From Myxococcota bacterium (GTDB lineage Bacteria > Myxococcota_A > Bradymonadia > UBA4248): a DNA stretch of 64,000 bases. The notes under the pieces were generated by a model. That model was not told the DNA's origin and did no database searches. It worked only from the letters and a program-made list of their open reading frames with translations. The position numbers and the translations under genes were made by a program. This document shows positions 5,863 through 53,951 of this stretch, piece by piece. Numbering within the stretch: the stretch's first letter is position 1; every line of letters begins with the position of its first letter. The DNA lies in NCBI GenBank assembly GCA_045599245.1, contig JAZRVP010000002.1, forward strand, positions 4,488-68,487, written 5' to 3'.

Positions 5863-5990
5863 AGGAGACGTGCGAAGCGCACGTCTCTGCTCGCCTATCG
5901 CGCGCAAACGCGCAATACGGCTCGCAGCGCCCGGCTATTTTGAAGGCAAAATACGCCGGGCGCATTTTATCGGAATGCCGGCGCTTTGCG
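5863..5990. repeat. cluster of GC-rich hairpin repeats in the divergent promoter region (family member R1)
   Basis: Hairpins seen directly: gagacgtgcg-aa-gcgcacgtctc, cgcctatcgcgcg-caaa-cgcgcaatacggc, gcgcccggctattttg-aagg-caaaatacgccgggcgc. Half-sites are shared with the other intergenic repeats. Confidence 0.6.
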
Positions 5991-6155: not shown

Positions 6156-9100
6156 ATGAAAAAATACATCTTTTTATGCGCAGTATTAAGTCTCGGACTT
6201 GTCGGATGCGGCGATGACTCAAACAACACGTCAGACCCCGTCGAAACTTCTCAATGCGGCAACTCAAAAGTCGAAAACGACGAAGCCTGTGATGACGGAA
6301 ACACAAACGCCGATGACGGCTGTTCTGCCGACTGCTCCCAGGTCGAAGACGGCTGGACATGCCCGAAAGAGGGCGGAAAATGCACGAAAAAAGATTCAGA
6401 ACAGGATCCGCCACTCGACGACGACGCCAAATGCGGCGACGGAAAAGTTACCGGCACAGAAGCCTGTGATGACAGCAACACCGATGACGGCGACGGATGC
6501 ACCGCTGACTGCTCAAAAATCGAAGATGGCTGGACATGCCCAAAAGAGGGCGGAAAATGCGCCAAATCCTCCCAATGCGGCAACAAATCAATTGAAGGCG
6601 ATGAAGCCTGTGATGACGGCAACACCGATGACGGAGACGGATGTGCCGCCGACTGCTCAAAAATTGAAGACAACTATCACTGTCCAACCCCCGGTTATCC
6701 ATGCATCCCTAATTCATGCGGCGATGGCATCACCGATACTTCAGCCGGTGAAGACTGCGACGCTGGCGATGAGAACATCGACTATGGCGATGAGAACGCC
6801 TGTTCGGAAAGCTGCCACCCTGCCCATTACTGCGGCGATGGTCTTCTCGATCAAATCGACATCGACAACGGCGAGGAATGCGATGCCGGTTCAGACACTT
6901 CCACTGAATACAACGGCTGCACATACGACTGCATGAGAAATAATTATTGCGGCGATGGCATCATTCAGTCCGCGAACGAACAGTGCGATGACGGAAACGA
7001 AGACGATGGGGACGGGTGTTCCTCAAGCTGCAAAATAGAACCGAATTTCACCTGCATCACTCAGGACGGAAAAAGCGTCTGCAAGTCCCTTTTGTGCGGA
7101 AATGGAAAAATCGACGAAGATACCGCTGAAACCTGTGACGACGGCAACCGTAACAATGGTGACGGTTGCTCCATGATATGCCTCGTCGAACACACTTTCC
7201 GATGTACCACCGACGAAAATACAGGAACATCCAAATGTGAAAGTACATGCGGCGACGGCATTGTCGATAAAGACACCGGTGAAGCCTGCGACGATGGAAA
7301 TACAAACGACGGCGATGGCTGTTCTTCACAATGCACGCTTGACCCCGGCTATGTCTGCAACGGCACACACTGTTTCGCCAGAGCCTGCGGTGACGGCATC
7401 GTCGCCGGACAGGAAGAATGTGACGATAAAAATACCGACTCCGGTGACGGCTGTTCAAAATTCTGCAAACGCGAAGAAAATTATCATTGCGACAAAGCGG
7501 GAGAACTCTGCCAGCTGGATGTCTGCGGCGACGGCCTCGTAACCGGTGACGAAACTTGTGACGAAGGCCATACCGATCATCCCGAGAACAAAACCGATGG
7601 CTGCCTCAATAGTAAGGTTCAGATGGGCTGGAAATGCGACACGGCAGGCACATCCTGTGTCTCCGCAGTCTGCGGAAACGGCATTCTTGAAGGCGCCGAA
7701 ACCTGTGAAATCCCTGACGCTGATCCCTCCGGTTGCTGCTTAGGCTGCGTTATTCAGCCATTCTGCAAGTGTGATACTGATGGTAAAAACTGCGAAAAAG
7801 GTTCTTGCGGCAATGGCAGGCTCGAAGCCGGTGAACAATGCGATGATGGCAATCTCACTGCCGGTGACGGCTGCGATCCCGTCTGTCGCATTGAGTCCAT
7901 CTTTGAATGCACCCGCGACGACGTAAACGGAACGGCTCAATGCCGCCCTGTGTGCGGCGACGGCGTTACCCTCTGGGACCTCGGCCCCGATGGCAAACCG
8001 TTCGAAGAATGCGACGACGGCAATCTCATCAACGGCGACGGCTGTTCAAGCGACTGCAAAATTGAAACTGGCTTCAGCTGCACGGAATTCGACACTTCCA
8101 CCCTCCCACCAACCCTTAACCTGCCAGTCACATACCGCGACTTCAAAGGACGCGGTGACCGCCGCTCCGGCGCTCAGACCGCAGACGCCGTTAACGGATA
8201 CATGGGCACAAACACATACCCCGCTGACTGCAAACCTACCCCTCTTAACGGCGACGGACATCCCGACTTCGGCGTCACTTCTTATGGCGAACTCCAGCAG
8301 GGAAACGTCCTGAACACCCTCGACAAGGACGGAAAACCCGTTCGAAGCGACCTGCGCCTGCGTTCCGCCTACTATGCCTGCAAGGAATCATTCCATGACT
8401 GGTACCGCGACCGCGAAGGCGTCAACTATCCCGTCAAAACTCACATCCCGGTCAACCTCGTCTCCGGTACCAAAAAATACGAGTTCGCAAACTCGGATTT
8501 CCACCCCATCAAAAATGATGGTTTCAACCGCCCCGGTTCCCCAAGCCCCGGCAACGCCGTCGGTTACATGTTCACTTCAGAGCTCAAAACCTATTTCAAA
8601 TACAACGGCAACGAAAGCCTCTCCTTCTACGGAGACGACGATGTCTGGATCTTCATCAATGGCAAACTCGCTGTCGATATTGGCGGCTGCCACGGCTCTC
8701 TGACAGGCACTCTGCAGCTCGACGACAAACGCGGCATCGGCACCGTTCACGTCAACGACCTCAATGGACATGACCACCCTTCCAATAACGTCCAGCTCGA
8801 CATGTATCCCGGCGGCATCTACGAAATGGCTCTCTTCCATGCCGAACGCTGCCAGGGCGGTTCCGCCTTCAAATTCACAATCGACAACTTTGTCAACACG
8901 GGTTCAAGTACATGCCAGTCCAATTGCGGTGACGGCTTCGTTCGCGGCGCTGAAGAATGCGATTATGTGACGAACAATCTCGATAACGTCGAAGAACAGC
9001 ATGCCAACGGATGTAACCACTGCAAAATCGCCCCATGGTGCGGTAATGGCAAGATCGAAGCCGGTGAAGCCTGTGATCCCGGTGCCGAGGAAACGGACTG

Positions 9101-9656
9101 GTGTTTTGGTCCCGGCAGTGAAAAGCCTTGCCAGCTCAAGACTTGCGGCAACGGCACGTTTGAACCCGAACACGAACAGTGCGACAAATCAGCTCCGGAA
9201 ACGGACGAAAATAAACACGAAAACTGCTCGGATATCTGCCGATTTGTGGGCTGCGGCGACGGCATCCTGCAGCCTGGCGAGGATTGTGATGACGGCAACC
9301 AGTCAGATGATGATATGTGTACAAGAAAATGTACAATTCCTATCTGCGGTGACGGCATCGTTTCCCCATCCATTGGCGAGGTCTGTGATGACGGCATAAA
9401 CGACGGAAGCTATGGCGGATGCGGCCTCGGGTGTACATATCAGACGCCCAAATGCGGCGACGGCATCATCGATGGCACACACGGCGAAGAATGCGATGAC
9501 GGCGAAGAAAACAACGTCGGCGGTTACGGCAAATGCAAAAAAGACTGTAAACTCGACGAACACTGCGGCGACGGCATCCTTCAGGAAGCCTTTGAACAGT
9601 GCGACCCCGGTTTAACCGCCGATTGCACATCAGCCTGTGAACACAGAATCAATTAA
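6156..9656 (+). CDS. Cys-rich repeat (CGDG..E.CDDGN..DGDGCS..C type) surface lipoprotein with central fibro-slime/PA14-like domain
   Basis: Lipoprotein signal MKKYIFLCAVLSLGLVGC. About 25 repeats of CGDGxxxxxEECDDGNxxxGDGCSxxC (Myxococcus cysteine-rich repeat type). The central segment ~8110..8910 (...GYMFTSELKTYFKYNGNESLSFYGDDDVWIFINGKLAVDIGGCHG...) matches the PA14-like fibro-slime domain architecture. Alternate-frame ORFs inside it are artefacts of the repeats. Confidence 0.85.
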   Translation: MKKYIFLCAVLSLGLVGCGDDSNNTSDPVETSQCGNSKVENDEACDDGNTNADDGCSADCSQVEDGWTCPKEGGKCTKKDSEQDPPLDDDAKCGDGKVTGTEACDDSNTDDGDGCTADCSKIEDGWTCPKEGGKCAKSSQCGNKSIEGDEACDDGNTDDGDGCAADCSKIEDNYHCPTPGYPCIPNSCGDGITDTSAGEDCDAGDENIDYGDENACSESCHPAHYCGDGLLDQIDIDNGEECDAGSDTSTEYNGCTYDCMRNNYCGDGIIQSANEQCDDGNEDDGDGCSSSCKIEPNFTCITQDGKSVCKSLLCGNGKIDEDTAETCDDGNRNNGDGCSMICLVEHTFRCTTDENTGTSKCESTCGDGIVDKDTGEACDDGNTNDGDGCSSQCTLDPGYVCNGTHCFARACGDGIVAGQEECDDKNTDSGDGCSKFCKREENYHCDKAGELCQLDVCGDGLVTGDETCDEGHTDHPENKTDGCLNSKVQMGWKCDTAGTSCVSAVCGNGILEGAETCEIPDADPSGCCLGCVIQPFCKCDTDGKNCEKGSCGNGRLEAGEQCDDGNLTAGDGCDPVCRIESIFECTRDDVNGTAQCRPVCGDGVTLWDLGPDGKPFEECDDGNLINGDGCSSDCKIETGFSCTEFDTSTLPPTLNLPVTYRDFKGRGDRRSGAQTADAVNGYMGTNTYPADCKPTPLNGDGHPDFGVTSYGELQQGNVLNTLDKDGKPVRSDLRLRSAYYACKESFHDWYRDREGVNYPVKTHIPVNLVSGTKKYEFANSDFHPIKNDGFNRPGSPSPGNAVGYMFTSELKTYFKYNGNESLSFYGDDDVWIFINGKLAVDIGGCHGSLTGTLQLDDKRGIGTVHVNDLNGHDHPSNNVQLDMYPGGIYEMALFHAERCQGGSAFKFTIDNFVNTGSSTCQSNCGDGFVRGAEECDYVTNNLDNVEEQHANGCNHCKIAPWCGNGKIEAGEACDPGAEETDWCFGPGSEKPCQLKTCGNGTFEPEHEQCDKSAPETDENKHENCSDICRFVGCGDGILQPGEDCDDGNQSDDDMCTRKCTIPICGDGIVSPSIGEVCDDGINDGSYGGCGLGCTYQTPKCGDGIIDGTHGEECDDGEENNVGGYGKCKKDCKLDEHCGDGILQEAFEQCDPGLTADCTSACEHRIN

Positions 9657-9718
9657 CCATTCACGTTGCACAGCCCCGTTCCCTGAATGATTTAACCGGG
9701 GTGCTGAAATATTAAAAC

Positions 9719-9813
9719 GAGCCGTATTGCGCCAAAGGCGCGATAGGCGAGTCGCGACGTGCGGTTCGCACGTCGCAGGCATGGCGTATTGGCCAAAGGC
9801 CGATAGCCATGCC
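9719..9813. repeat. three adjacent GC-rich hairpins (family member R2)
   Basis: gccgtattgcgcc-aaa-ggcgcgataggcgag; gcgacgtgcg-gtt-cgcacgtcgc (perfect 10-bp stem); ggcatggcgtattggcc-aaa-ggccgatagccatgcc. Confidence 0.6.
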
Positions 9814-9979
9814 GCATATCAATTCACAATGCTCTGGCCCGCAGTCTTGTAATGACGCATCACTGCGGGCTTTTCTGCATCAAGTGCTTCAAATCACAAG
9901 CTCCAAATCTTGCCTTTTTTCGACAAACTCCTAAAACGCCTTCAGGTTTACTTCATCGTATTTTGTATCAGAAGGCGAA

Positions 9980-10642: not shown

Positions 10643-10680
10643 TAATATGGCGCGGCCTATTGCCTCCGGCAATACGCGCC
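10643..10680. terminator. palindromic hairpin exactly filling the gap between convergent genes (family member R3); putative bidirectional terminator
   Basis: tggcgcggcctattgcc-tcc-ggcaatacgcgcc, a near-perfect inverted repeat lying between the stop at 10640-10642 (+) and the stop at 10681-10683 (-). Confidence 0.5.
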
Positions 10681-12252
10681 TTATGCATTCCATGTTTCAA
10701 TCACACAATCGTGCAATTTTTTATCCTTGTCGTAATTAACGCCGCATAAAAAGACTTCGCCTTTGTAATCACCAAAGAGATTGACATATCGACGGGATTT
10801 TATCTGTGCAATGGCGCCTTCGGCGTTTTGGTCCCATTTGAGCTCGACGACGATGGCTGCACGGCCGGACTTGATGGGAATCATCACGATATCGGCAAAG
10901 CCGGCACCGGATGGAAGTTCGCGAACAAAAATATATTCTTTTCGTGCCGAGGCACAGGCATACATGACAACAAGTGCAAGGTCGTTTTCGCGGTTGTAGG
11001 TCAAAACCGAGGATATATCGTCATGAACTTTTTGAATTTCAGCTGCGACGGTCGCTGCATCGCGTGAACGAAGTGCATCCATGATGTGCTTAGAACGGGC
11101 ATAAGCCTGAACAAAACCTTCCATGCCGCAGTCTTCCAGGGCTACTTCATACTCCATTCGAATTTCTTCATTTGGAATAAAACATTCGCCTGACGTTTCA
11201 TCATATCCAAGATATCCCAGATGAATGAGAAGTGTTAATACATCGTTTTTACTATTCAAATCGGTCATTTTATTTTTAAAATGCAACGTTTTGACAGGAA
11301 CGCGATCGCCCGTCATCAGACGGGCAACATCGTCTTTCAATCCATCGAAATTCATCGTGATATGGTCTGATATCTGTTCATACGTCCCGGTTTTAGTCCA
11401 GTAACTCTTAAAACGGCCACGCATCATCGACTGATAAATCGAGTTTGGATTATAGATATGTTCAATATCACAGATGTGATAACCGTCGTACCATCTGCTG
11501 CATTCTTCAAATTCCAGGTTGTAGCGGGAGCAAAGCTCCTGAACTTCGTCTTTGGTAAAACCGACGTATTTGGATAAAACATCGGAATCGACCATAGTGA
11601 ATTCACGAAACATGTTCATGGACGATTCCGTGTTGTATTTGACGATCGGGAAAATACCAGTCACATAAGCGAGTGCAATGCAATCATTTAAAGCTCTGCT
11701 CTTAAAGAGCTGACGCAGAAAATCGACGTATGCTCTTTGAATTCGATCGGGGAACTGATGCCTGAAGATGCCGTCCCATTCGTCGATAATGATGACAAAC
11801 TGTTCGCCATATTGAGCATAAACATAACACAAAGCATCGGGGATCGATTGTGCATAGTCATCTGGAATTTCCCACTTGGCTTGCATTTCAAAAATAAGAC
11901 ATCGATTTGTTTTGGGTAAAAAATCCTCTGGTTTGCTGCAGTCCATAAACTGCTGTGCATCCCAATAAAGCACGTTGAATTTGTTCAATCCCTTTTCAAA
12001 ACTGGGGTGTTTTGCGATTTCGAATGGTTCAAAAAGTGAACGACTGTCGACGGTTTTGTCATAGTATGCCGCGATCATGTCAGCCGCTATCGACTTGCCA
12101 AAACGTCGAGCCCGGCTGACGCACACGAAGCGATCGACCGAAAAAAGCCACTGATTGAGGTGCGCAATCAATCCCGTTTTGTCGACATAAAAGTAAGAAT
12201 TATCGACAACTTGTTTAAATCTGTTCAATCCCGTGTTCAGAAACATTCCCAT
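10681..12252 (-). CDS. AAA-ATPase-like / PD-(D/E)XK nuclease family protein (DUF1703-type architecture)
   Basis: ORF 10681..12312; the likely start is MGMFLNTGLNRF at 12252. The N-terminal P-loop-like part is YVDKTGLI...VSRARRFGKS. The C-terminal region has a restriction-endonuclease-like fold (..IVVELKWDQNAEGAIAQIKSRRY..), typical of the AAA-ATPase_like + PDDEXK family common in Bacteroides-type genomes. Confidence 0.7.
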   Translation of the reverse strand: MGMFLNTGLNRFKQVVDNSYFYVDKTGLIAHLNQWLFSVDRFVCVSRARRFGKSIAADMIAAYYDKTVDSRSLFEPFEIAKHPSFEKGLNKFNVLYWDAQQFMDCSKPEDFLPKTNRCLIFEMQAKWEIPDDYAQSIPDALCYVYAQYGEQFVIIIDEWDGIFRHQFPDRIQRAYVDFLRQLFKSRALNDCIALAYVTGIFPIVKYNTESSMNMFREFTMVDSDVLSKYVGFTKDEVQELCSRYNLEFEECSRWYDGYHICDIEHIYNPNSIYQSMMRGRFKSYWTKTGTYEQISDHITMNFDGLKDDVARLMTGDRVPVKTLHFKNKMTDLNSKNDVLTLLIHLGYLGYDETSGECFIPNEEIRMEYEVALEDCGMEGFVQAYARSKHIMDALRSRDAATVAAEIQKVHDDISSVLTYNRENDLALVVMYACASARKEYIFVRELPSGAGFADIVMIPIKSGRAAIVVELKWDQNAEGAIAQIKSRRYVNLFGDYKGEVFLCGVNYDKDKKLHDCVIETWNA

Positions 12253-12584
12253 GATGCGCCTCCTCACCAAGCATGCGGCATAACATGCAATACAAACATT
12301 AAAATAACACACCCATGATGCTTTGGCGAGTGTACCTGTTGTTTTGAGATACGGCCCGTTTCAATTTTTCTCGTTCCACGCCGGACTTCATGTGGAATAC
12401 GCCTTACAAGGCGCTTCGCGCCTTAGTTTTATGCCCAAAGCTTTTTCAAAATATCGATTTTTTCGTCTTGACGGAATGAATTTTCTTTTTATGAAACAAT
12501 GTCTTTTATGCGATGTAGAAGACCGTGTTTTACTTTTTAATCAATATAACAGTCCCACTTTGTACACATCAATTATGAGTTGCC

Positions 12585-13126: not shown

Positions 13127-13200
13127 CGGCCGGGTGTATCGGCAAAGCCGATAGCCCGGCCCAAGCGAGCCGTATTGCGCGTAGCGCGATAGGCGAGTTT
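13127..13200. repeat. two GC-rich hairpins between convergent genes (family member R4)
   Basis: gccgggtgtatcggc-aaa-gccgatagcccggc and gccgtattgcgc-gtag-cgcgataggcgag; the second is almost identical to the first hairpin of R2. Confidence 0.6.
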
Positions 13201-16951: not shown

Positions 16952-17029
16952 CGTATATACTCCGAAACAGTTCGGTCAGAGCAGAGGCAGAACAAAAAAA
17001 AGCACATCAAGAAATGATGTGCTTTACAA

Positions 17030-17102
17030 CAGGGGTGGAAGGACTCGAACCCTCGGCCCACGGCTTTGGAGGCCGTTGCTCTACCAACTGAGCTACGCCC
17101 CT
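17030..17102 (-). tRNA. tRNA-Trp (anticodon CCA), no encoded CCA tail
   Basis: The minus-strand read AGGGGCG-UA-GCUC-AGUUGGUA-GAGC-A-ACGGC-CUCCAAA-GCCGU-GGGCC-GAGGG-UUCGAGU-CCUUC-CACCCCU-G gives a cloverleaf with U8, A14, G18G19, U33, A37 and a T-loop GTTCGAGTCC. It closely resembles canonical bacterial tRNA-Trp. There is one C6-A67 mismatch in the acceptor stem. Confidence 0.8.
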
Positions 17103-17194
17103 ATCGGACGAGAAAAGATGATGCCACAACTGAAGACTGAAAGCCAGCAAAAAAAGAAAAAAGTTCAGAATAAAGTTACAGCTCAGTCTGGGCT

Positions 17195-17292: not shown

Positions 17293-17411
17293 AGTTCGCA
17301 ATATGAAATGCACTTCGTTTCCCGAGCCAGCCTCACCGCTTTGTCACTACGTGACGTTCGCCGTCTCCTTTATGGCGAGGGGGGATTTTGGGTAACATTT
17401 CATTTGCTCAC
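17293..17411 (+). repeat. structured repeat: conserved 36-nt 5' arm + variable perfect hairpin + conserved 3' arm (copy 1)
   Basis: 5' arm agttcgcaatatgaaatgcacttcgtttcccgagcc, inner hairpin gtcac-tac-gtgac, 3' arm catttcatttgctcac. The 36-nt 5' arm recurs exactly, inverted, at 63965..64000, and the copy-1 3' arm recurs with one mismatch (catttcatttgctcacGggg vs ..Tggg); the enclosed hairpin there is different but again perfect. Confidence 0.65.
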
Positions 17412-17413
17412 GG

Positions 17414-17499
17414 GGCTCTCGTCAATTTCTGCCTTAATATTGTGTAACAATCCTTTTTTTTTCGCCAATCTCTGCATATTTCAGTAGATTTGGGAATTA
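17414..17499 (+). promoter_or_regulatory. conserved ~85-nt leader/promoter-like element, copy 1 (upstream of csrA)
   Basis: ggctctcgtcaatttctgccttaatattgtgtaacaatcc...cgccaatctctgcatatttcagtagatttgggaatta, about 85% identical to 22142..22225. It contains the near-palindrome ttgtgtaacaa and a TAgaTTTG motif. Confidence 0.55.
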
Positions 17500-22728: not shown

Positions 22729-22754
22729 TTCCGGCATTATCCCTAAATTTATGA

Positions 22755-22777
22755 ACCGGCTTCGGCCGGTTTTTTTG
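22755..22777 (+). terminator. Rho-independent terminator
   Basis: aaccggc-ttcg-gccggtt followed by T7. Confidence 0.7.
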
Positions 22778-22786: not shown

Positions 22787-23344
22787 ATGATGACAATCGT
22801 TGAAAAATATGAACGCAGTCTTTGCACCGAAAACTGCGATGAACTTTTCAAAACGATCGATGCCATGTCGGCTCAGGACAATCCCCTCCCGATTTCCTTA
22901 TGGAAATCGGCGTGTCATGCTTTGCAACTGATTGCTCAAAAAACGTGGTGGAAATGCCAATGCGGGCCCATTGAACCCAATGCATCAACCATCGATGCAC
23001 TTTGTCCAACATGCGGAGAATTCAGAATTTTACCGCAAAGAATGCAAAGATCACCCTGGCCATTGTATATTATTTGTCTCAAACATTTATATCCGGAGAC
23101 ATGGTTTGACGCATTATTTGCCTGGATGAAGCAAAAATATCCGGAAACAGAAATCAAAGCCGGCGTATGTCCAAAGGACATAGCCGGCGGGGGGAGCGCC
23201 GTATTGCCACCGGCAATAGGCGCGCGGGGGGCCGTGCCCCACGTCCCAAACGCCATTCACTGTATTGACGGCATGATCATCGAAGATACAGGCACGATTC
23301 GCGGCCTGCAATGGATTGCCCTTCCCATGATGCCGATCGATTGA
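22787..23344 (+). CDS. hypothetical protein with CxC...CxxC zinc-ribbon-like motif; 3' third of ORF is built from palindromic repeats
   Basis: The start was re-set to MMTIVEK at 22787, after the terminator. WKCQCGPIEPNASTIDALCPTCGE resembles a Zn ribbon. Codons 22787+ ~375..460 coincide with the hairpin repeats at 23159..23243. Confidence 0.4.
   Translation: MMTIVEKYERSLCTENCDELFKTIDAMSAQDNPLPISLWKSACHALQLIAQKTWWKCQCGPIEPNASTIDALCPTCGEFRILPQRMQRSPWPLYIICLKHLYPETWFDALFAWMKQKYPETEIKAGVCPKDIAGGGSAVLPPAIGARGAVPHVPNAIHCIDGMIIEDTGTIRGLQWIALPMMPID
23159..23243. repeat. GC-rich hairpin repeats embedded in the 22787..23344 ORF (family member R5)
   Basis: gccggcgtatgtcc-aaa-ggacatagccggc; gcgccgtattgcc-acc-ggcaataggcgcgc (its reverse complement is nearly identical to R3); gggggccgtgcccc. 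Confidence 0.6.
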
Positions 23345-23455: not shown

Positions 23456-26035
23456 GTGAACTACCGAAGACTTTTCTCAATCAGCATTTTATCAGCACTC
23501 ACCGTGGCCGGATGTGCAGACAGCGTCTCCAACCCAATTCAGCCGGCAACCTGCGGAAACAATGTCCGTGAACTCAATGAAGTCTGTGATGGAACCGATT
23601 TAAACAATCTTTCATGCAGCCATTTTAAAATGGGCTCAACGGGAACGCTGGCCTGTGCAGCCGACTGCACCAAATATGAGATTTCAGGCTGTTCGGCACC
23701 AACCTGTGGAAACAATATCCTGGATGCCAACGAAGACTGTGATGGCGCACTGTTTGCGAACATGAAAAATGTCTGTCCCGCCGGAACCACGGGAACACCC
23801 GTATGTGTCAACTGCCAGATCACGGGCTGCACCCCTGTCACGCCATCCCCAACCTCGAAATGCGGAAACAACATACTTGAAACTGGCGAAGTCTGCGACG
23901 GCACGGATGTCGGCGGCAAAACATGCAACGACTTCATCGCCGGTTCTCAGGGTACGGTATCATGTCAGACAGACTGTCTCGCCTATAATGCCACCCAGTG
24001 CAAACTCGAAACCTGCGGAAACAAGTCCATTGATGCCGGAGAGGACTGTGACGATACCGCATTTGCCCCGGGCAAAGACAAATGCCCGGACGGTTATACG
24101 GGAACACCGGTTTGTGACGTAAACTGCACAATATCGGGCTGCACACCGATCGCCAAAGACTGCGATGACGGCGCATCCAAATGCGAAAATAATGCAGTGT
24201 CACAGTGCGCCGGCGGAAAATGGGTTGAAATCCAAAAATGCGAATATGGATGCAACGGAAATGTCTGCAACACCGAAGCTCCTGCCGGCTGCAACAACAA
24301 CAAACTCGATGCCGGTGAAGATTGCGACGGAACTTTGTTTGCCGATGGCAAAGACAAATGCCCGGACGGCTACACCGGCACTCCGGTCTGCAACGAGAAT
24401 TGCGTCGTCACGGGTTGCACACCGACACAGGAAGAAAAGCCCAAATGCGGCGATGGTGAAGTCAACCAGGAGAGTGAGGAATGCGACGGAACAAAATTCG
24501 CCGCTGGAAAAGACACATGTCCCGACGGATACACCGGCACACCGAGTTGTGACGCCGCGACATGCAAAGTCACCGGTTGCACACCTGTAACTGACACACC
24601 CAAATGCGGTGACGGTGAAGTCAACCAGGAAAGTGAAGAATGCGACGGAACAAAATTCGCCGCTGGAAAAGATACATGTCCCTCAGGATATACAGGCACT
24701 CCGGTTTGTGACCCCAACACGTGCAAAGTTACCGGATGCACGGAAGAATCGAGTGAAATCGAAATTAAGTGTACAGACAACGTACTCCAGATGTGCGAAA
24801 ACGGCACATGCATCGATGACAAAGATTGTACGGTCAGTGCCAAATTATGCGATGCTCAGAAAGGCGAATGCGTCGAACACGATTTCACATGCGACGGCAC
24901 AAAAATGGTCTTCGGCAACGACGGAACCGTTGACTGCAGCAAACGAAAAGACGGTCAGGTCGGCTGCGCCGATGCATTCGGCTGTGCCGATCAGTACTGC
25001 TCCGGAAACAAGCTCATGGACGGCACCAACGTCCAGATTGACTGCTCAAGTTTCGGCGGCACATGTGACAACACACTCGTCGAATGCGTCTGCACTGAAG
25101 ACGTCATCGGCTGTTTCGACAACGGTTCGAAAAAAATTTCCGTCGTGTGCGATGAAACAGGTGCCGAGATTGATTACTGCGCCGGCGACTGCGACGACAA
25201 CAACGGCTGCCTCGCCAAAGAACCTTCCTGCGGCGACGGCGAAATCAATACCGTCAACGGCGTGGCCGAACTCTGCGATTACGACAGCAACAACAAGCCC
25301 ATCTGGACTTCTGTTTACAACCAGTACTTCGTCAACTACGAACCAACCTGCAACTTCTATAATTACAGCCAGGGCGGCGACGTCATCTACGTCTCCGGTG
25401 CACCTTCCTGCAAAAACAAAAATAACAAGTGCAGCATCGATGTCTCGACCTGCAATGTCGCAACCGACGCCGATTTCGTCGATGTTTATTCCTGGAATTT
25501 CTCATCCATGGACTACATCAAAAATCTTACCAACAGCACGAACAGCAACAAAATCGGCGGTGTTGCCATTCATCACACGAGTGAAAATGACGGATTTAAA
25601 GTCAGTCAGTATGTCAAAGAAGATAAAGCCTGGCAGATCGGTTCCTGGACAAAAGGCACAAATCCCGATTTTGAAAACACTTATATGTGGTTCAAGGCCG
25701 GTGATGCCAAAAACAACGTCGTCCAAATTACCTTTGACATCAAACGCGCTGAAACCGGCCCGCAAAAAGCCCAGCTTCAGTTCTTTGACGGCACCACGGC
25801 TCTCAAAGAAAAAGTCAACAACAAGGAAGTCGATGCCAAATCCGCCGTCATTGATATACCAAAGAAAGACACCTATTATCCCGTCACGATCATTTATCGC
25901 CCCGATCGCTATCATGCCAACGAAGTTGTCGAAAACTTCACGTTCAAACTCACGGGTTATTCGGCCACAACAGGCGATGGAAACGGCTCAATGTCGATCA
26001 AAAATGTCGTCGTTAAAAGTGTGAATGCCCTCTAA
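23456..26035 (+). CDS. Cys-rich repeat surface lipoprotein (about 8 repeats TCGN..D.GE.CDGT.F....D.CP.GYTGTP.C.-C.VTGCTP) with C-terminal beta-sandwich-like domain
   Basis: Lipoprotein signal MNYRRLFSISILSALTVAGC. The protein-level repeats are very regular. There is a near-identical ~150-nt tandem DNA duplication at 24441..24745. The C-terminal ~300 aa are non-repetitive. Confidence 0.85.
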   Translation: MNYRRLFSISILSALTVAGCADSVSNPIQPATCGNNVRELNEVCDGTDLNNLSCSHFKMGSTGTLACAADCTKYEISGCSAPTCGNNILDANEDCDGALFANMKNVCPAGTTGTPVCVNCQITGCTPVTPSPTSKCGNNILETGEVCDGTDVGGKTCNDFIAGSQGTVSCQTDCLAYNATQCKLETCGNKSIDAGEDCDDTAFAPGKDKCPDGYTGTPVCDVNCTISGCTPIAKDCDDGASKCENNAVSQCAGGKWVEIQKCEYGCNGNVCNTEAPAGCNNNKLDAGEDCDGTLFADGKDKCPDGYTGTPVCNENCVVTGCTPTQEEKPKCGDGEVNQESEECDGTKFAAGKDTCPDGYTGTPSCDAATCKVTGCTPVTDTPKCGDGEVNQESEECDGTKFAAGKDTCPSGYTGTPVCDPNTCKVTGCTEESSEIEIKCTDNVLQMCENGTCIDDKDCTVSAKLCDAQKGECVEHDFTCDGTKMVFGNDGTVDCSKRKDGQVGCADAFGCADQYCSGNKLMDGTNVQIDCSSFGGTCDNTLVECVCTEDVIGCFDNGSKKISVVCDETGAEIDYCAGDCDDNNGCLAKEPSCGDGEINTVNGVAELCDYDSNNKPIWTSVYNQYFVNYEPTCNFYNYSQGGDVIYVSGAPSCKNKNNKCSIDVSTCNVATDADFVDVYSWNFSSMDYIKNLTNSTNSNKIGGVAIHHTSENDGFKVSQYVKEDKAWQIGSWTKGTNPDFENTYMWFKAGDAKNNVVQITFDIKRAETGPQKAQLQFFDGTTALKEKVNNKEVDAKSAVIDIPKKDTYYPVTIIYRPDRYHANEVVENFTFKLTGYSATTGDGNGSMSIKNVVVKSVNAL

Positions 26036-29100: not shown

Positions 29101-30132
29101 AAGACCGCAAAGGCGCCTGAATGGCTCTCATGCAACGCGGATTTCGAGCCCAATGACTATCCGTCGTCAGCTTATGACCTTGTCAAGGCCGCCAAATCCG
29201 GCAAGACGCTCGAACTGTGCCCCTCCACCGACGAAGATTATTACAAAATCGATCTCCACGAGGGCGACCGCCTGCAGCTCGGTTTCAAGACTGAGGCCAC
29301 GGGGCTTCGCGCCGCTCTTTACGTCGGCACGGAACAACGCTTTCTCAAACTCCTCACGAATCCGGCCGCTCAGGGACTCGATTACACCGCAACCGAAGAC
29401 AACACGTACTATCTTCGCATCTACACAAACGTAACCAATGCCCCGACCATGCCCTACCAGCTCCAGTGGCTTGGCACGGAAGGCGTCGATATGGCCGTTT
29501 CCAACCTGAAATACGCCCCGGAAATTCCATCCGCCGGTTCCCCGATAACCGTCGATTACGACATTCATAACCGAGGATCGGTCGAAACCGCCTACAATAC
29601 CGCCGTTACACTCACGACGAATCAGCCCTACACGCTCGCGACGGCTTCCGGAAAACTCGCCCCAGGCGCCACCGAAAACGCGCGTCATAAAATCACAATC
29701 CCCTCACAAATTCAGGGCTTTGCGACGCTATCTGTCACCGTTTCGGCCGATGGCGACGAATCCTCCGGTAACGATCGCCAAATGCTCGAATTCACCATTC
29801 TGGCCGCCTGCATGAACGACGACAATGAACCGAACGACAACATCCTGCGCGCAACGCCGATCGAACACGCCATTCAAGGCACTCTCTGCCCCAATGACGA
29901 AGACTGGTTCAAAGCCGTCCTGACCGAAGCCGCAGCCGCGACTCTCAAATTCTCGCACGAGAACGGCGATCTCGATCTCGAGGCCTACGACGAAAACGGT
30001 GAACTCATCGGACAAAGTACGAGTGCAAATGACATCGAACGCATCGAGCTGCCAAATGCCGGCACATACTATCTTCGCGTTCGCGGGTCGAGTTCATCGG
30101 ATACGGGAACTTATGAGCTGACAATCGAGTAG
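26170..30132 (+). CDS. large surface lipoprotein with PKD domain, multiple CARDB-like domains and four pre-peptidase C-terminal (PPC)-like domains
   Basis: The start was re-set to MKKYCFRAMLLAVLITGC at 26170. The PKD motif is WDFGDGITLAGDYEASHHYRDAGKYKVSV. Repeated domain ends ..NNVAFG, ..SNNTVRS, ..EDNNIQRS, ..EKNNTKN, ..PSNNIVRT, ..SGNDRQM are typical of CARDB. The PPC-like modules are EPNDRISEA...DLFQLDL, DPNDTIETA...DFYVIDM, EPNDYPSSA...DYYKIDL, EPNDNILRA...DWFKAVL...GTYELTIE. Confidence 0.85.
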   Translation: MKKYCFRAMLLAVLITGCGSESDDLTFSIFADPSRTHAPGDITFELTRDDGEPVTECSGKWDFGDGITLAGDYEASHHYRDAGKYKVSVALTCDDKKGKASTDVEVFGTVDLGVAAVEARPLDISTNGTLSVSFQVSNGANNALQIPTYIDIYLTPTASETAYLESGASRIFRHTLPSLPAAGNENSVQKIELDIPLDASIRTGAYYLSAVINPDHQIGEVSYANNVAFGTQAVTVRNQATDGADFVASRLQVSPPVTSILTSATAQFDIINQGSTTAETFRYEVWIGAKDNAENMDGATKIHESTIDGGMSGVEQSFKNILLSITPAISDPGLYYFWLVLDPNDAIVERDESNNTVRSSAPIQITNEPVLDADITVEKLTFAPTSTNPGGTFSATVDLYNQGSQPTGSFVCTIFLSNDMSLDIDKDSIVGSLNVDNLLPLSSQTMTGIMETDTGITPGKYWVYAFCDSSGVVSEANEDNNIQRSENQLVVTSDADIDLVFGPPQLESTSTLNDGNDISMSVMYCNKGSTSAGPSYVSVMRINRCDNTETEFSRILVEGMDAGHCENVYAKAPLVCDFWCPNYAFYFIADSTMIVDETEEKNNTKNLQEKITMSGDNCVCAGDKYEPNDRISEAALVRAVHDDLTLCPNDADLFQLDLVEGETTEIHLSHDHLKSPLELSMIRGSDVISSVSGSDDLYLTDLHAINTKQMPTYVKISGLTATDANRYHLDADIYSTITGIDLAASTLKIEDDALNASDNRRVSMILTNLGKSTSPSVSIGYYLSRTTQIDDSAWRLARQTVSPIPPNTTTAPAINLKLPADTEGGSYFLIAKVDDENEIKDARPSNNIVRTPLWKFERSCWDILDPNDTIETARTIPLKDGQFHQDELAVCQNNPDFYVIDMKNGYSLDITATTTGTGDFDLVLYDQNFNEIVSSRTGSATESIHRDAVIGDQKLYLQVFLLENIYNAKEAAYTLDIKTAKAPEWLSCNADFEPNDYPSSAYDLVKAAKSGKTLELCPSTDEDYYKIDLHEGDRLQLGFKTEATGLRAALYVGTEQRFLKLLTNPAAQGLDYTATEDNTYYLRIYTNVTNAPTMPYQLQWLGTEGVDMAVSNLKYAPEIPSAGSPITVDYDIHNRGSVETAYNTAVTLTTNQPYTLATASGKLAPGATENARHKITIPSQIQGFATLSVTVSADGDESSGNDRQMLEFTILAACMNDDNEPNDNILRATPIEHAIQGTLCPNDEDWFKAVLTEAAAATLKFSHENGDLDLEAYDENGELIGQSTSANDIERIELPNAGTYYLRVRGSSSSDTGTYELTIE

Positions 30133-30281
30133 GCGATCCTATGCGCCGCAGACGCATACGGATCGCGGCGGCGCGGCCTAATAGATACGGCCGCGCTGCT
30201 TTTTTTTAAGAAAATCGCCGGGCGTATGGCGCAGGCCATAGACCGGCGCGCGGGGCGTATGGCGCAGGCCATAGTCCCGCC
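30133..30281. repeat. hairpin cluster plus terminator plus 2x tandem GGGCGTATGGCGCAGGCCATAG repeat (family member R6)
   Basis: gcgatcctatgcg..cgcatacggatcgc; gcgcggcc-taatagatac-ggccgcgc followed by T8 (terminator of the 26170 gene); then two tandem copies of gggcgtatggcgcaggccatag(a/t)cc. Confidence 0.65.
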
Positions 30282-31995: not shown

Positions 31996-33255
31996 ATGCC
32001 GCACAGCCAGGCCCTCGAGGCCGATAGAAGCATTATTTTGAGAAAACACGACCACAGACATACATCCTCAGAGATGCATCCCGATGAAATTCTTGCGCGC
32101 GCACTGCTGCGCACCCAGGCTGATTACGACGACGTCGTATCGACGATTTCCTATTCTCGCGGTTTTCCCGTCTGGACTCACCGACAGACGGTTCTCTTTA
32201 TTCTTCGTCAGGACAACGGCCCCTGGGCGGTACGGGGCGATTTCAACGACTGGAATCCGTTTCCGATGCAGCAGGCCGAAAACGGCCTGTGGTATGCCGA
32301 ACTTCGCATACCGCGAATGATCGGTCAGGGGATTCGATACAGCTATATCAACGCCGAAAACGAGGTTATTGCCGATCCGCTTGCGCGCTGTTTTGGCGAA
32401 GACAACGACGGAGAATTTTCCTATCTCAAGCGGCCCTCCCGCACGCAGTACCTCATGCGCTGGAATGATTTCAAAAGCCCGCAGGGCCTGAAATCGCGTC
32501 CGCTTCACATCCTTGTTCCGCCCAATCCCGGGCCTTATGACGTTCTTTATGTTCACGACGGCCAGAACCTTTTCAGCAAGGACAGCATTTGCGGCGGCTG
32601 GAAACTGTGTGAAAACATGGCCGAAATCGGCGGAAATTTTCTCATCGTCGGCATCTGGAACAGTCCGGACAGAATGCGAGAATACACGCACGCAACCGAC
32701 CTGTACGATGACGACTATCACGCGACACTGGGCAGGAAATACGCGTCATTTGTCGAGGAAACGGTTCGTCCGTTCATCGAGTCGCATTTTGAAACGACGC
32801 CGCGAGCCGGCCTGATGGGTTCATCCCTTGGCGGCCTCATCAGCCTGTATATTGCGAACTGCTATCCCGGACGGTATGACTCGGTGTTTGCACTCTCGCC
32901 GACGACGGCCTGGGGGCACTTTGGGAGCGACAACGGACCTCTGATTCGCGATTTTTATGAGAAATCAGGCCATCAAAACACGTTTCTGTACATCGATCAC
33001 GGCGGCATGTTTCCGAAAGAAGGGATGCCGGATGTCTTTGACCGCAAGGCCGCGATACGAGATGAATCGGGCTGGGCCAGTCCGTACGACAACTGCTGTC
33101 ATACGTTTGATTTTGTGTCGGCCCTGGTCGAACTTGGCTACCGTCAGAGCGTCGATATGTTTTACCAGCACATTCCCGGGGCGATGCACAACGAAGGCGC
33201 GTGGGCCTCGCGCGTAAGCCGGCCGCTGCGGCTATTCATGCAAAAGAAAAAGTAG
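31996..33255 (+). CDS. esterase (putative-esterase / enterochelin-esterase-like alpha/beta fold) with N-terminal CBM48/E-set glycogen-binding-like domain
   Basis: WAVRGDFNDWNPFPMQQAENGLWYAELRI (E-set/CBM48-like), followed by the GSSLGG nucleophile elbow and a C-terminal HNEGAW region. An alternative start MHPDEIL lies at 32074. Confidence 0.75.
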   Translation: MPHSQALEADRSIILRKHDHRHTSSEMHPDEILARALLRTQADYDDVVSTISYSRGFPVWTHRQTVLFILRQDNGPWAVRGDFNDWNPFPMQQAENGLWYAELRIPRMIGQGIRYSYINAENEVIADPLARCFGEDNDGEFSYLKRPSRTQYLMRWNDFKSPQGLKSRPLHILVPPNPGPYDVLYVHDGQNLFSKDSICGGWKLCENMAEIGGNFLIVGIWNSPDRMREYTHATDLYDDDYHATLGRKYASFVEETVRPFIESHFETTPRAGLMGSSLGGLISLYIANCYPGRYDSVFALSPTTAWGHFGSDNGPLIRDFYEKSGHQNTFLYIDHGGMFPKEGMPDVFDRKAAIRDESGWASPYDNCCHTFDFVSALVELGYRQSVDMFYQHIPGAMHNEGAWASRVSRPLRLFMQKKK

Positions 33256-33330
33256 GCCGGGCGTATCGCTAAGGCGATAGCCCGGCAGGCGAGCCGTAGA
33301 GCCGCAAAATTTTACGGCTCAAGACGAGCC
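33254..33330. repeat. two hairpins between convergent genes (family member R7)
   Basis: gccgggcgtatcgc-taag-gcgatagcccggc (compare R4) and gccg-caaaatttta-cggc. Confidence 0.6.
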
Positions 33331-34683: not shown

Positions 34684-34951
34684 TGAGCCTTTAAAAGAGA
34701 GAGGGAAAAGGGAGGAAATGCCAGAGAGCGGGTGGGGCGTCTATGTCCTTCGGGCATACGACGACTGTTCCTCGGCTATTTCCCGGTGGTCAATACGCCT
34801 CGGAAAGGGTATGATGATAGCGTATCTTGAGAGCAAAAAAAGCACAATATGTGCAAAAGTGGCGTCTGAGACGGCTTGCGTATAAACCAAAGACAGAGTA
34901 AAGTAAGACGGTTTATGGTCTGCGCAAAGCGCATATTAAGGAAGGAACAAT

Positions 34952-42958: not shown

Positions 42959-43104
42959 TTTTATTCTCCTTCACAGATGCGGTCTTAAATTAAAAGAGTT
43001 GGCAATGGAGCCGGATTTTAGATACAGCAATTCTAATGCCAAACCCTGTTTTATGGCATATTTTGTCTTTTTCGTAAAGAGAACATGGCAAAAGCATAAA
43101 AAAA

Positions 43105-43166
43105 GCGCGGCGTATGTCAATAGCCGCGCTCGCGAAGCGTATTCGCCTTTGGCGAATAGCGAAGCC
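43105..43166. repeat. two hairpins between co-directional genes (family member R8)
   Basis: gcgcggc-gtatgtcaata-gccgcgc and gcgtattcgcc-ttt-ggcgaatagcg. Confidence 0.6.
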
Positions 43167-47436: not shown

Positions 47437-47473
47437 GGCCGGCCTATGGCGCACATCGCGCCATACGTCCGCC
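47437..47473. repeat. hairpin (family member R9)
   Basis: ggccggcc-tatggcgc-acat-gcgccata-cg; this is the perfect tatggcgc/gcgccata stem. Confidence 0.6.
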
Positions 47474-47580
47474 AAAAGACGCTATGTTTTTTTGCCTCCC
47501 TTTGAGGCAAAAAAAGCATACGCGTCTTTTTCATTTTGCTCAAAACACGCCTGCCGCTTGCGCGCACCACGGCTCATGCC

Positions 47581-48975
47581 ATGATCGGATGGCTCGATGC
47601 ACTCATCGCCGCCGTATTTCTCGCCATCACACTCTGGATGGGACTGCGGCTCAAGGATAAAACCACCGATTCCGCCGGATATCTTCTCGGCGGACGTGCA
47701 CTCACTCTGCCCGCATTTGTGGCAACCACGGTTTCTACCTGGTACGGCGGCATTCTCGGCGTCGGCGAATATTCATTTCAATACGGCATTTCAAACTGGA
47801 TCGTGTTTGGTGTCCCCTATTATTTAGGTGCCCTGCTCTTTGCTCTCCTTTTGAGTAAACGCGCCAGAAAACATGAATCTCTCACAATCCCTCATATCTT
47901 CGAAACAGGATACGGAACAAAAGCCGCCAAATGTGCCGCCATTCTCATCTTCCTCACGACCATTCCCGGCGCCTACACCCTCATGATGGGTACTCTCTTT
48001 TCGATGACCTTTGCCATCCCTGCCGCCTTCGGTATCCTTCTTACCGCCGTCTTTGTCGTCATCTACCTCTGGCGCGGCGGTTTTAAAGCCGTCGTCAAAA
48101 CCGACGCCATCCAGTGTGCACTCATGTTCGGCGGCTTTTTACTGCTCACGCTGTGGCTCGTTATTGGATTCGGTCTTGAACCGCTCAAATCACTTCCTCC
48201 AGGGCATCTTCAACCGACTGGCGGACAGCCCGTCGGAAGCATCCTCATCTGGTACGTCATTGCCCTGTCAACACTCGCTGAACCCAACTTCTTTCAACGA
48301 GCTTTCGCCGCCAAAAACCCGGAAATCGCTAAAAAAGGTCTCCTCATCAGTATCGCATGCTGGTGCTTTTTCGATATCATGACGACGATTTGCGGTCTAT
48401 ACGCCAGAGCTTTACTCCCCGACCTCTCAAATCCCGTCCAGGCCTTTCCGGCTCTCGCCGCTCACGTTCTTCCCATCGGACTGACTGGAATCTTTTTTGC
48501 CGGACTGTTTGCTACCGTCCTTTCATCACTCGATTCCAACCTGTTTACCGCTGCTGCAACGTTCGGCCGCGATTTATGCCCCCGCCCCCTTAATCAATCT
48601 TCTAATCCTCGCTATACAAAAATCGGACTCATACTCGCCGCCATCCTCGCCAGTGCCATTGCTCTTTGCTCCGGTTCGGTCGTCCAAATATGGAAAATTT
48701 TTGGTTCTGTTTCAGCCGCTTCCCTTCTTATTCCCATCTTCGGTATCTATTATCCTAAACTTAAAATGTCCGAAACAGGCGCAATAATCCTCATGATCAC
48801 GAGCTGTATCACGACTTTGACATGGTTCGCTGCAGGTAAAATGACCGGAGCCTTCTGGTTTGAAATGGAACCGTTGTTTGCCGGCGGCCTGATGAGCATT
48901 TTCATCTTTTTGTCCGAAAAATGCCTCCGCCACTGTTCTTTGCTCAAACACACACAAAAAAATTGTGAAAAATAA
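47581..48975 (+). CDS. sodium:solute symporter family (SSF) transporter
   Basis: The track ORF starts at TTG 47536. The ATG at 47581 (MIGWLDALIAAVFLA) matches typical SSF N-termini. The SSF signature is YLLGGRALTLPAFVATTVSTWYGG. The protein is polytopic. Confidence 0.85.
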   Translation: MIGWLDALIAAVFLAITLWMGLRLKDKTTDSAGYLLGGRALTLPAFVATTVSTWYGGILGVGEYSFQYGISNWIVFGVPYYLGALLFALLLSKRARKHESLTIPHIFETGYGTKAAKCAAILIFLTTIPGAYTLMMGTLFSMTFAIPAAFGILLTAVFVVIYLWRGGFKAVVKTDAIQCALMFGGFLLLTLWLVIGFGLEPLKSLPPGHLQPTGGQPVGSILIWYVIALSTLAEPNFFQRAFAAKNPEIAKKGLLISIACWCFFDIMTTICGLYARALLPDLSNPVQAFPALAAHVLPIGLTGIFFAGLFATVLSSLDSNLFTAAATFGRDLCPRPLNQSSNPRYTKIGLILAAILASAIALCSGSVVQIWKIFGSVSAASLLIPIFGIYYPKLKMSETGAIILMITSCITTLTWFAAGKMTGAFWFEMEPLFAGGLMSIFIFLSEKCLRHCSLLKHTQKNCEK

Positions 48976-49303
48976 TATCCGAAACAGCTGAATCAATGCT
49001 CATGACCGCGAATTGTACGGCGACTTTGACTTGTTTTCCCGACTGTACAATTTCAGGAACTTTTTTGTTTGAATTTCAGTCATGATTTACAGGTAATTCC
49101 ATAAGTCCTCACCCCTTTTTCACCGAAAAATGCCTCCTTTTCTGTTCGTTAACCAAAATAATGCAAAAAAGTGCGAAAAATAACACCTCATGTGACTATT
49201 TACTTGACAGTTTGGGGCTCAAAACATACTTTTCGCCTTGTTTTTGACAAACGCCAAAGGCGAGTTGTCGTCTAGTACCTCTCTTTTTCTGGAGATTTGA
49301 GTT

Positions 49304-49720
49304 ATGAAAAAAGGTGAACTCCTTAAAGAAGTGTCCAAAAAAATCGCTGATCAGAAATTGACCAATGCTCAGCTGAATGCAACCGTTAAAGCCGTCTTTG
49401 ATGCTCTCGGCGAAGCCATTTGCTCAACCGGTCGCGTTGCTTTCCCAGATTTCGGTACGTTTACAGTTAAAGAACGTGCAGCTCGCGATGGCCGTAATCC
49501 TCGTACAAAAGAAACCATTAAAATTCCTGCTTCCAAGAATATCGCTTTCAAAATTTCCCCCAAACTCAAAGCTATGCTCAATGTCGACATGGCTGCCGAT
49601 GACAAAGCTGATGCAAAAGTAGCCGACAAAGTCGAAGAGAAAAAAGAAGCCAAAGCCGACAAAAAAGCTGCTGACAAAAAAGCCGCTGACAAAAAAGCCA
49701 CCAAAAAAACAAAGAAATAA
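49304..49720 (+). CDS. hup: HU-family DNA-binding protein with Lys/Ala-rich C-terminal tail
   Basis: HU fold residues (..GRVAFPDFGTFTVKERAARDGRNPRT.E.I.IPA...FK) plus the tail AKADKKAADKKAADKKATKKTKK. Confidence 0.85.
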   Translation: MKKGELLKEVSKKIADQKLTNAQLNATVKAVFDALGEAICSTGRVAFPDFGTFTVKERAARDGRNPRTKETIKIPASKNIAFKISPKLKAMLNVDMAADDKADAKVADKVEEKKEAKADKKAADKKAADKKATKKTKK

Positions 49721-53454: not shown

Positions 53455-53560
53455 AACGCCGGCTAATGGCCTAACGGCCATACGCCAGGCGGTCCTCGCT
53501 AGTGGCCTAACGGCCATACGCTCGGACTTTTTTTCGCCATCCGGCTAAAAGCCGGCACAA
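53455..53560. repeat. 2x tandem TGGCCTAACGGCCATACGC hairpin repeat + ccggctaaaagccgg hairpin (family member R10)
   Basis: taatggcctaacggccatacgc at 53464..53485 and agtggcctaacggccatacgc at 53501..53521, then T7 and ccggc-taaaa-gccgg. Confidence 0.6.
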
Positions 53561-53877: not shown

Positions 53878-53951
53878 TCAAATATCATTTCACGCATTCT
53901 AATAAAACAAAATATAATATCCCGTCACACATCACATCCATTATATACTTT

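Follow-up and report, generated by a model that had tools for sequence, protein, structure and literature searches.

Here we describe a family of short hairpin repeats in a 64,000-nt stretch of a Myxococcota bacterium genome (contig JAZRVP010000002.1; the whole stretch is called the window, and positions are counted from its first letter) and in related gut, rumen and termite genomes. Each unit is a GC-rich hairpin built around a single unpaired G next to paired TAT and ATA, with stems that differ from copy to copy. We consider the units to be short DNA repeats, non-coding and defined by their structure, that form a family across the lineage, belong to the repetitive extragenic palindrome (REP) kind and are probably mobilised as folded single-stranded DNA, and we put the probability of this reading at about 0.6. 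Three facts carry it. The core and loop are strongly conserved and differ between the strands, the orientation of the units with respect to transcription is random, and identical copies are dispersed, which together point to a DNA-level repeat that is read as a folded single strand and argue against an RNA motif or a terminator. By analogy with known hairpin-reading systems, the repeat is probably recognised in this folded form.

Architecture and distribution of the unit

Read 5' to 3', a unit consists of a GC-rich outer stem of 3-10 bp, a C:G closing pair, an unpaired G, TAT, an inner stem of 0-7 bp, an apical loop of 3-4 nt (usually 3 nt), ATA pairing with TAT, and the 3' arm of the outer stem. 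Units are 24-38 nt long and GC-rich. Only the core is fixed; stems and loop vary freely while complementarity is kept.

An earlier note on this DNA had listed hairpins at 12 intergenic sites and described common half-sites. The hairpins are present at all 12, and the half-sites correspond to the CGTAT...ATAG of the common architecture. Each of the 12 regions folds with the predicted bulged G (z-scores -2.9 to -9.0), and 0-1 of 200 shuffles folded as well as the real regions, so the folding check that had been proposed returned stability beyond shuffled controls throughout. A search for the architecture itself (outer stem, bulged G and TAT:ATA; the strict scan) gave 13 matches in the window; in 200 dinucleotide-preserving shuffles the mean was 0.1 and the highest count 2. 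With a covariance model derived from 27 units, approximately 25 units were placed at 13 intergenic sites of the 64-kb window. The 12 sites were therefore all borne out, but their total was short by one, as the model adds 34734-34804 on the minus strand. The listed site at 60914-61020 holds in part: units occupy 60909-60974, and the T-run hairpin at ~60975-61020 is an ordinary terminator and, by the model, no member of the family.

The core is highly specific. In 466 kb of related DNA we found 91 hairpins with a 5' bulged G and TAT:ATA, compared with 0-1 for the same hairpin without a bulge, or with an A, C or T bulge, and at most 3 for a bulged G beside any other self-pairing trinucleotide. 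Chance GC palindromes are excluded by the shuffles together with these bulge and trinucleotide controls. An ungapped alignment of the 27 units showed invariant G-TAT and ATA-G and a C:G closing pair in 25, with changes on both sides in 11 of 15 pairs. In this alignment 88.6% of cells are paired, against 65.8% after column shuffles and 28-44% with the partners slid; since the aligned units had been chosen for partial pairing, some of the paired fraction is built in, whereas the double changes are not. Stem pairing would be kept by compensatory change. Judged by folds and covariation, the units are 20-40-nt imperfect palindromes with a stable stem-loop, as REPs in the broad sense are.

The loops distinguish the two strands. 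On the strand with the G bulge, the triloops GCA, AAA, GAA and AAC total 44 and their complements approximately 8, and the pair closing the loop is mostly C:G. This asymmetry indicates that the element has one distinguished strand. Since this functional strand is not consistently the transcribed one, it points to single-stranded DNA.

A scan of one genome per species with the pattern GCGGCGTAT-N7-19-ATAGCCGC found multi-hairpin loci only in gut, rumen and termite metagenome-assembled genomes (MAGs) of one group, titled 'Proteobacteria bacterium RGIG...', 'Myxococcota bacterium', 'uncultured Myxococcales' or 'Myxococcales UBA4248', and in one MAG labelled 'Bacteroidaceae'; matches in all other taxa were single, non-palindromic and due to chance. 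In 442 kb of related MAG loci (GC 40-58%) the covariance model recovered 163 distinct units, and in 444 kb of control loci the seeded pattern sites only, so the enrichment beyond the window that the note had asked about is real. By strict scan, every sample of the lineage, the 523 kb of metagenome contigs among them, holds 1-3 units per 10 kb. The window's TPR protein has a single identical NCBI entry, on a 68-kb contig, and its next relatives are only ~57% identical; a relative at 52% identity, L001 (GC 56%), has the same hairpins with different stems, and one window protein is 84% identical to a 'Myxococcota bacterium' MAG protein. Fibrobacter, suggested earlier as the related group, is not supported, the closest relatives found being Myxococcota, Myxococcales and 'Proteobacteria bacterium RGIG...' MAGs from gut and rumen. 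An Rfam 15 gathering scan returned tRNA-Trp only and no known RNA family, and E-value scans of three element regions gave a best E of 0.16, far below gathering scores; these four scans rule out a known structured RNA family.

Copies, arrays and a partner enzyme

Near-identical copies occur at separate places. The similarity noted between 9721 and 13168 holds and extends to the reverse complement of 5893, with identical CGAGCCGTATTGCGC/GCGCGATAGGCGAG arms; the units at 5888 (-), 9716 (+) and 13164 (+) share identical 15-nt and 14-nt arms. The two other similarities, between 10648 and the reverse complement of 23196 and between 13129 and 33257, were likewise recovered. A two-unit block of a GCCNGG unit and a GAGCC unit is common to sites 1 and 4 of the window, and a 58-nt composite of a unit and a GACGTGCG hairpin recurs inverted at sites 1 and 2, 89% alike. 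One MAG has near-identical 53-nt composites on different contigs, which differ mainly by compensatory inner-stem changes. Between two species whose syntenic DNA is 73-88% identical, some units keep their place and orientation, others are in one species only, and one copy has decayed from GTAT to GCAT. At 57-63% protein identity, unit positions are no longer conserved.

Many units, including the one at 23189-23243 in the window, sit in a composite frame of ~55-70 nt, GAGGGGG-TA-[unit]-NCA-GGGGG-AGACTT-CCCCCTC. Related loci (L014, L016, L025, L032, L042, L054, L058, L071, L086, L109, L120-L122, L001 and others) give 36 pattern matches to it, some from near-duplicates, and in ~20 of the 36, again counting some near-duplicates, GTAG lies directly 5' of the bulged hairpin. 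The C-run of the frame can pair with either G-run, giving two alternative helices. Nearly every GGGGG-loop-CCCCC hairpin in the related loci has an adjoining unit. Because there are almost no empty hairpins, insertion of units into pre-existing ones is ruled out, and the composite itself is the repeated unit. Comparison with miniature inverted-repeat transposable elements, which have terminal inverted repeats and a target-site duplication and derive from an insertion sequence, showed 7-bp inverted ends (GAGGGGG/CCCCCTC) and a repeated GGGGG in the composite; no empty site or parent insertion sequence was found. The conserved composite has no match in Rfam, and its mixed orientation relative to flanking genes rules out a reading as cis-regulatory RNA.

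Two pairs of related contigs show local differences at or beside units. Contigs L128 and L129 are 98.5% identical and carry units with tandem G.A/A.G mismatches in the stem (GTATAGAGGCC...GGCCGATATAG; L128:6800-6880 and L129:1440-1520); homology stops inside the second unit, which could be a rearrangement breakpoint or an assembly artefact. Between L154 (968-1230) and L183, which are 85% identical, a small palindromic repeat, CCCCTCTCCATAAATGGAGAGGGG, is found in one contig only, on both sides of a GTAT composite.

Units usually stand in head-to-tail arrays of 2-4, each abutting the next. Adjacent units have the same orientation in 64 pairs and the opposite orientation in 2, with gaps of 0-4 nt, and model matches group as 65 singles, 45 doublets, 9 triplets and 1 quadruplet. 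Most neighbours within one array differ in sequence. Tandem pairs had been reported twice in the window, which is an undercount, as 10 of its 13 sites hold at least two abutting units. The label 'REP/BIME-like' fits in so far as this is a dispersed, extragenic palindrome family of the REP kind. It does not fit the architecture of bacterial interspersed mosaic elements (BIMEs), where units alternate in orientation and linkers are conserved. Nor do adjacent units make up REPINs, in which two inverted REPs form one long hairpin.

By analogy with HUH/Y1 enzymes such as REP-associated tyrosine transposases (RAYTs), we propose a hairpin-specific enzyme that would act in trans and read the asymmetric core of G bulge and TAT/ATA. 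The element would act and spread at the DNA level, with the G-bulge strand presumably folding as single-stranded DNA, and the putative enzyme would copy or move units and whole arrays to new intergenic places. Arrays would grow by same-orientation insertion beside an existing unit, or by local duplication.

The enzyme was sought in part with a hidden Markov model (HMM) of 120 RAYTs; a RayT alignment, used to search a large protein collection, had returned Enterobacteriaceae and Phycisphaerae proteins only, which were used for HMM building. L064 (Phycisphaerales), where a RAYT lies near a pattern match, proved to be a chance match with ordinary GTAG REPs.

The results of this search, and several other observations, weigh against mobilisation by such an enzyme. 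Known RAYT-linked REP families seldom form head-to-tail arrays (PMC3733652). No Y1 or RAYT gene was found in the window by Pfam on 40 open reading frames (ORFs), phmmer with E. coli RayT, a regular expression for HUH/Y or the custom HMM, and phmmer and the regular expression gave no match in the lineage either. The RAYT HMM was likewise negative across the 442 kb of related genome loci, though a single-copy gene could escape a search of about 1 Mb drawn from many genomes. Among the 523 kb of related metagenome contigs, its one match was a frameshifted ORF, L192:1003-1578 (-), with HIHMI and, in a shifted frame, YIQNNP, which Pfam did not recognise. This RAYT-like ORF is bracketed by classical GTAG REPs (GTAGGGGCGACCGTCCCGGTCGCCC) and not by GTAT units. 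Those GTAG REPs are a second family, seen only in termite-type contigs (L192, L115), where they coexist with the GTAT hairpins, and absent from the window. The cognate RAYT that the earlier note proposed to look for was therefore not found in the window or in the related DNA available, and a comparison of neighbours revealed no gene family recurrent beside units. A search for clean filled and empty sites among near-identical contigs gave no polymorphism involving a unit. There is also no replication-strand bias: window units are 13 plus and 12 minus under a uniformly negative GC skew, a poor fit with strictly lagging-strand-targeted insertion.

The main rival, which we consider unlikely, dispenses with a dedicated mobilising enzyme. 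Units would spread by tandem duplication, recombination and gene conversion, and the core would be held fixed by an abundant host factor such as a nucleoid protein, gyrase or a structure-specific nuclease; E. coli BIMEs, for comparison, bind IHF, gyrase and Pol I. That neither a transposase nor a recurrent neighbouring gene family was found fits such a mode of spread, and the abutting same-orientation arrays resemble tandem duplications, with inner stems shared between 30216 and 30249 and between 53457 and 53492. The window also contains an HU-family gene (49304-49720), but nothing ties HU to the hairpins. Against it, unlinked sites and separate contigs carry near-identical units and doublets, which requires dispersal beyond local duplication. 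Most array neighbours differ in sequence, and the variable spacing of the half-sites argues against a duplex-binding dimer.

A second alternative, also doubtful, is that an undescribed hairpin-specific enzyme other than a RAYT, working on folded single-stranded DNA or RNA, adds units directionally and in this way builds the arrays. If true, the repeats would represent a new class of structure-coded mobile or array-forming elements. They would share their uncultured gut lineage with the classical GTAG-REP/RAYT system of its termite-gut members and be independent of that system.

Genomic position and the units of the window

At least 86% of 186 units lie outside ORFs, though ~87% of the DNA is ORF. 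Unit density per kb is 3.2 in co-directional spacers, 3.5 in convergent and 1.1 in divergent ones. The sites had been described as lying mostly between convergent genes; of the 13 in the window, 4 are convergent, 7 co-directional and 2 divergent. All window units are located between annotated genes, save for a possible read-through ORF at 22787-23344. This ORF, of ~185 codons, stays open across the two units at 23157-23226; it may be spurious, or the units may have taken the place of a small gene's original 3' end.

Position bears on an improbable third rival, in which the units are RNA elements: 3'-UTR or terminator hairpins that evolved in place, with the G-bulge/UAU core serving as a site for an RNA-binding protein or RNase. 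Many units do follow a stop codon and precede an ordinary terminator (9716-9813, 47437, 60909-60974), and others adjoin stop codons directly (10646, 30132). Units start a median of ~50 nt from the upstream stop, and the folds predict hairpins that are very stable as RNA. However, units also occur after a terminator (30216-30281), in 5' regions (5888-5962, 34734-34804, 53457-53527) and in divergent promoter regions. In co-directional spacers 37 are sense and 50 antisense, and the window arrays run 4 each way, so orientation is random though the core and loops are strand-asymmetric. The near-identical copies at unlinked loci and the lack of an Rfam match also speak against RNA elements and for the DNA repeat.

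The suggestion of terminator hairpins is not supported either. A T-run had been noted once; three units have one, namely 30171-30196 (followed by T8), 43104-43130 (T7 after the reverse strand) and 53492-53527 (T7 after the plus strand), and all other units lack one. Ordinary terminators stand alongside units at 9836-9876, 22753-22772, ~47487-47516 and 60975-61031. In a terminator scan of 5-24 kb, no unit was terminator-like, though ordinary terminators were flagged. As a class the units do not have the form of intrinsic terminators, with the exceptions of 43104-43130 on the reverse strand and 30171-30196. For 43104-43130, the T7 places a U-run on the transcribed strand, which is in favour of an RNA role there, and this unit probably also terminates the upstream minus-strand gene. 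Transcribed units would be very stable hairpins that may buffer 3' ends and, with a U-run as at 43104-43130, terminate transcription. Such a function of stable 3' hairpins is probably a side effect, though it may be real at sites of this type.

The 58-nt composites at 5865-5926 (-) and 9716-9776 (+) bracket a DUF4215/PA14 cysteine-repeat gene (6156-9656). Relatives L001, L125 and L126 have the amylase and TPR genes side by side, with no DUF4215 gene between them. The gene may be a hairpin-associated insertion. That the units are attC-like folded recombination sites of a cassette system moving the genes they flank is nevertheless very improbable: this arrangement, the extrahelical base and the variable terminal stem recall attC, but there is no GTT/AAC core and no integrase gene in the window, units point both ways and mostly flank ordinary housekeeping genes, and multi-unit arrays have no gene between units.

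Along the window, the first site holds a unit of the GAGCC-GTAT...ATAG-GCGAG subtype at 5888-5926 (-, 18.2 bits in the covariance model), with the bulged-G fold and arms identical to those of 9716 and 13164, followed by the strict-scan unit GCGCCCGGC G TAT TTTG-CCTT-CAAA ATA GCCGGGCGC at 5928-5962 (-, 31 bits). An accessory perfect hairpin, GAGACGTGCG-AAG-CGCACGTCTC (5865-5887, -), makes up the 58-nt composite together with 5888-5926; a 37-nt inverted repeat here (I2) is 89% complementary to 9738-9774. The second site, whose coordinates the earlier note carries, begins with a GAGCC-subtype unit at 9716-9753 (+, 14.6 bits, strict scan; site fold z -9.0). By repeat search, fold and alignment, the accessory hairpin that follows, GCGACGTGCG-GTT-CGCACGTCGC (9754-9776, +), is an inverted copy of 5865-5887. 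The third element is the strict-scan unit GGCATGGC G TAT TGGCC-AAA-GGCCG ATA GCCATGCC (9778-9813, +, 31.7 bits). At 10646-10683 (-, 22.7 bits, fold z -2.9), a unit with an imperfect outer stem fills the 38-nt gap between two convergent stop codons. The gene that ends right beside it, 10681-12312 (-), has predicted AAA-ATPase and PD-(D/E)XK nuclease (PDDEXK_9) domains; no link to the repeats is established. A GCCGGG-subtype unit at 13128-13161 (+, 43.9 bits) and a GAGCC-subtype unit at 13164-13199 (+, 16.1 bits) repeat the doublet of site 1 in alignment.

The next site has a unit at 23157-23190 (+, 41.1 bits) and a composite at 23189-23243 (+) that consists of a G-run, a unit at 23193-23226 (45.1 bits) and a folded GGGGGG-CCGT-GCCCC hairpin. 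A further series begins at 30132-30167 (-, 23.2 bits, strict scan), straight after the stop codon at 30132. It continues with a borderline GTAT..ATTAG variant at 30171-30196 (-, 16.9 bits), whose plus strand reads as a hairpin followed by T8 and is terminator-like, and ends in two abutting units with a common inner stem at 30216-30248 (+, 24.9 bits) and 30249-30281 (+, 29.1 bits), both in direct repeat D19. A GCCGGG-subtype unit at 33255-33287 (+, 35.2 bits) is followed by a degenerate GAGCCGTA...TACGGCTC hairpin at 33289-33330 (+), seen by fold without a model call, that is possibly a decayed unit. The site absent from the original list comprises a unit at 34734-34767 (-, 23.9 bits), which forms inverted repeat I8 with 23158-23186, and a weak unit abutting it at 34769-34804 (-, 15.5 bits).

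Downstream, a short-form unit without an inner stem, GCGCGGC G TAT GTCA ATA GCCGCGC, lies at 43104-43130 (+, 26.2 bits) next to a folded unit with a weak outer stem at 43131-43166 (+, 16 bits). A single unit at 47437-47474 (-, 18.1 bits) stands between a stop codon and an ordinary terminator. A GTAT...ATTAG variant at 53457-53491 (-, 15.9 bits) is abutted by a GTAT...ACTAG variant at 53492-53527 (-); both fold, and the second is below the model's E-value cut-off. The short-form unit CCTGTGC G TAT GAA ATA GCACAGG at 53820-53845 (+, 16.5 bits, strict scan) precedes a unit at 53847-53878 (+, 21.9 bits), and the last site consists of units at 60909-60939 (-, 17.1 bits, strict scan) and 60941-60974 (-, 44.2 bits).

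The window contains other repeats. A distinct repeat of at least 130 nt, with a 36-nt perfect match inside, is found at 17293-17419 (+), ~190 nt from tRNA-Trp (17029-17103), and at 63900-64000 (-), downstream of a YhgA/Rpn-like 'Transposase_31' gene (62811-63830), where it is clipped by the window end. Most direct-repeat families from the repeat finder are accounted for by three genes for large, secreted-type proteins with cysteine-rich repeats, at 6156-9656, 23456-26035 and 49825-52704; the first matches DUF4215, and the other two are assigned from shared repeat DNA. A 100-nt direct repeat, 70% identical, at 48765-48864 and 48974-49073 covers the end of a sodium:solute symporter gene and the spacer that separates it from the HU gene.

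Comparison with known systems

Integron attC sites resemble the units, as read here, in acting as folded single strands; their extrahelical bases determine which strand is used, and the terminal stem-loop is of variable length. Unlike attC, the units have no R-box (GTT/AAC), integrase or uniform orientation, and they are much shorter. The RYYYAAC/GTTRRRY core is missing, units point both ways, and the window has no integrase.

The subterminal hairpins of IS200/IS605 elements (IS608, ISDra2) offer another parallel, in that their Y1 transposases recognise an extrahelical or mismatched hairpin base (PMC8266576, and established knowledge). Oriented insertion beside a short target could also give same-orientation neighbours. 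Here, by contrast, no transposase gene lies between paired ends, and the hairpins are solitary or in arrays rather than left-end/right-end pairs. No conserved flanking tetranucleotide was seen beside the units.

Both RAYT and IS200/IS605 TnpA read stem irregularities or extrahelical bases in folded single-stranded DNA in a strand-specific manner (PMC8266576). In the E. coli group 2 REP/BIME system with RayT (TnpA-REP), a stem irregularity is needed for strand-specific recognition of the folded single strand (Corneloup et al. 2021, PMC8266576), and we infer a similar recognition here. The likeness extends to the composite sub-family, G-GTAG-CGGC-G-TAT..., which in ~20 of 36 pattern matches has GTAG directly 5' as in the E. 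coli REPs (PMC8266576). The irregularity itself differs, an AA/GC mismatch in E. coli and a single-G bulge beside TAT/ATA in the units. In further contrast to E. coli REP/BIME, most units lack GTAG, orientations do not alternate, and no RayT flanked by units was found; the RAYT-like ORF of one relative is flanked by a separate, perfect-palindrome GTAG REP.

The GTAG and CGTC REP superfamilies (Di Nocera et al. 2013, PMC3733652) are likewise imperfect GC-rich palindromes of 20-40 nt that are extragenic, multi-copy and often transcribed. Their sub-families differ by complementary stem changes and sometimes lie within a larger palindrome, and the CGTC REPs have no known dedicated transposase (PMC3733652). 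Their tag, however, is terminal and unpaired, while the units have a paired, internal GTAT...ATAG with a single bulged G, and GTAT is not among the tag variants given (PMC3733652). GTAG stands 5' of the hairpin in the composite sub-family only, and classical GTAG REPs are absent from the window. Head-to-tail pairs, which dominate here (64:2), are avoided by the GTAG/CGTC families (PMC3733652), and the copies differ far more in their stems than members of either superfamily do.

Genome structure, mRNA stability and rearrangement are all shaped by REP-type repeats, whose mode of spread is only partly understood. What is new here is an internal GTAT core with a single-base bulge, a conserved signature that adds a third to GTAG and CGTC, together with a head-to-tail layout largely absent from known REP families and an apparent independence from the RAYT/GTAG-REP pair of some relatives. 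C-GTAT...ATAG hairpins provide an easily scanned marker for the uncultured gut and rumen lineage that NCBI labels Myxococcota, and the units are a defined substrate for finding the enzyme that reads them. With its different, internal tag, its head-to-tail arrangement and no REPtron found, the family is outside the GTAG/CGTC superfamilies, BIMEs and REPINs. It stands as a well-characterised REP-like family that does not overturn current ideas.

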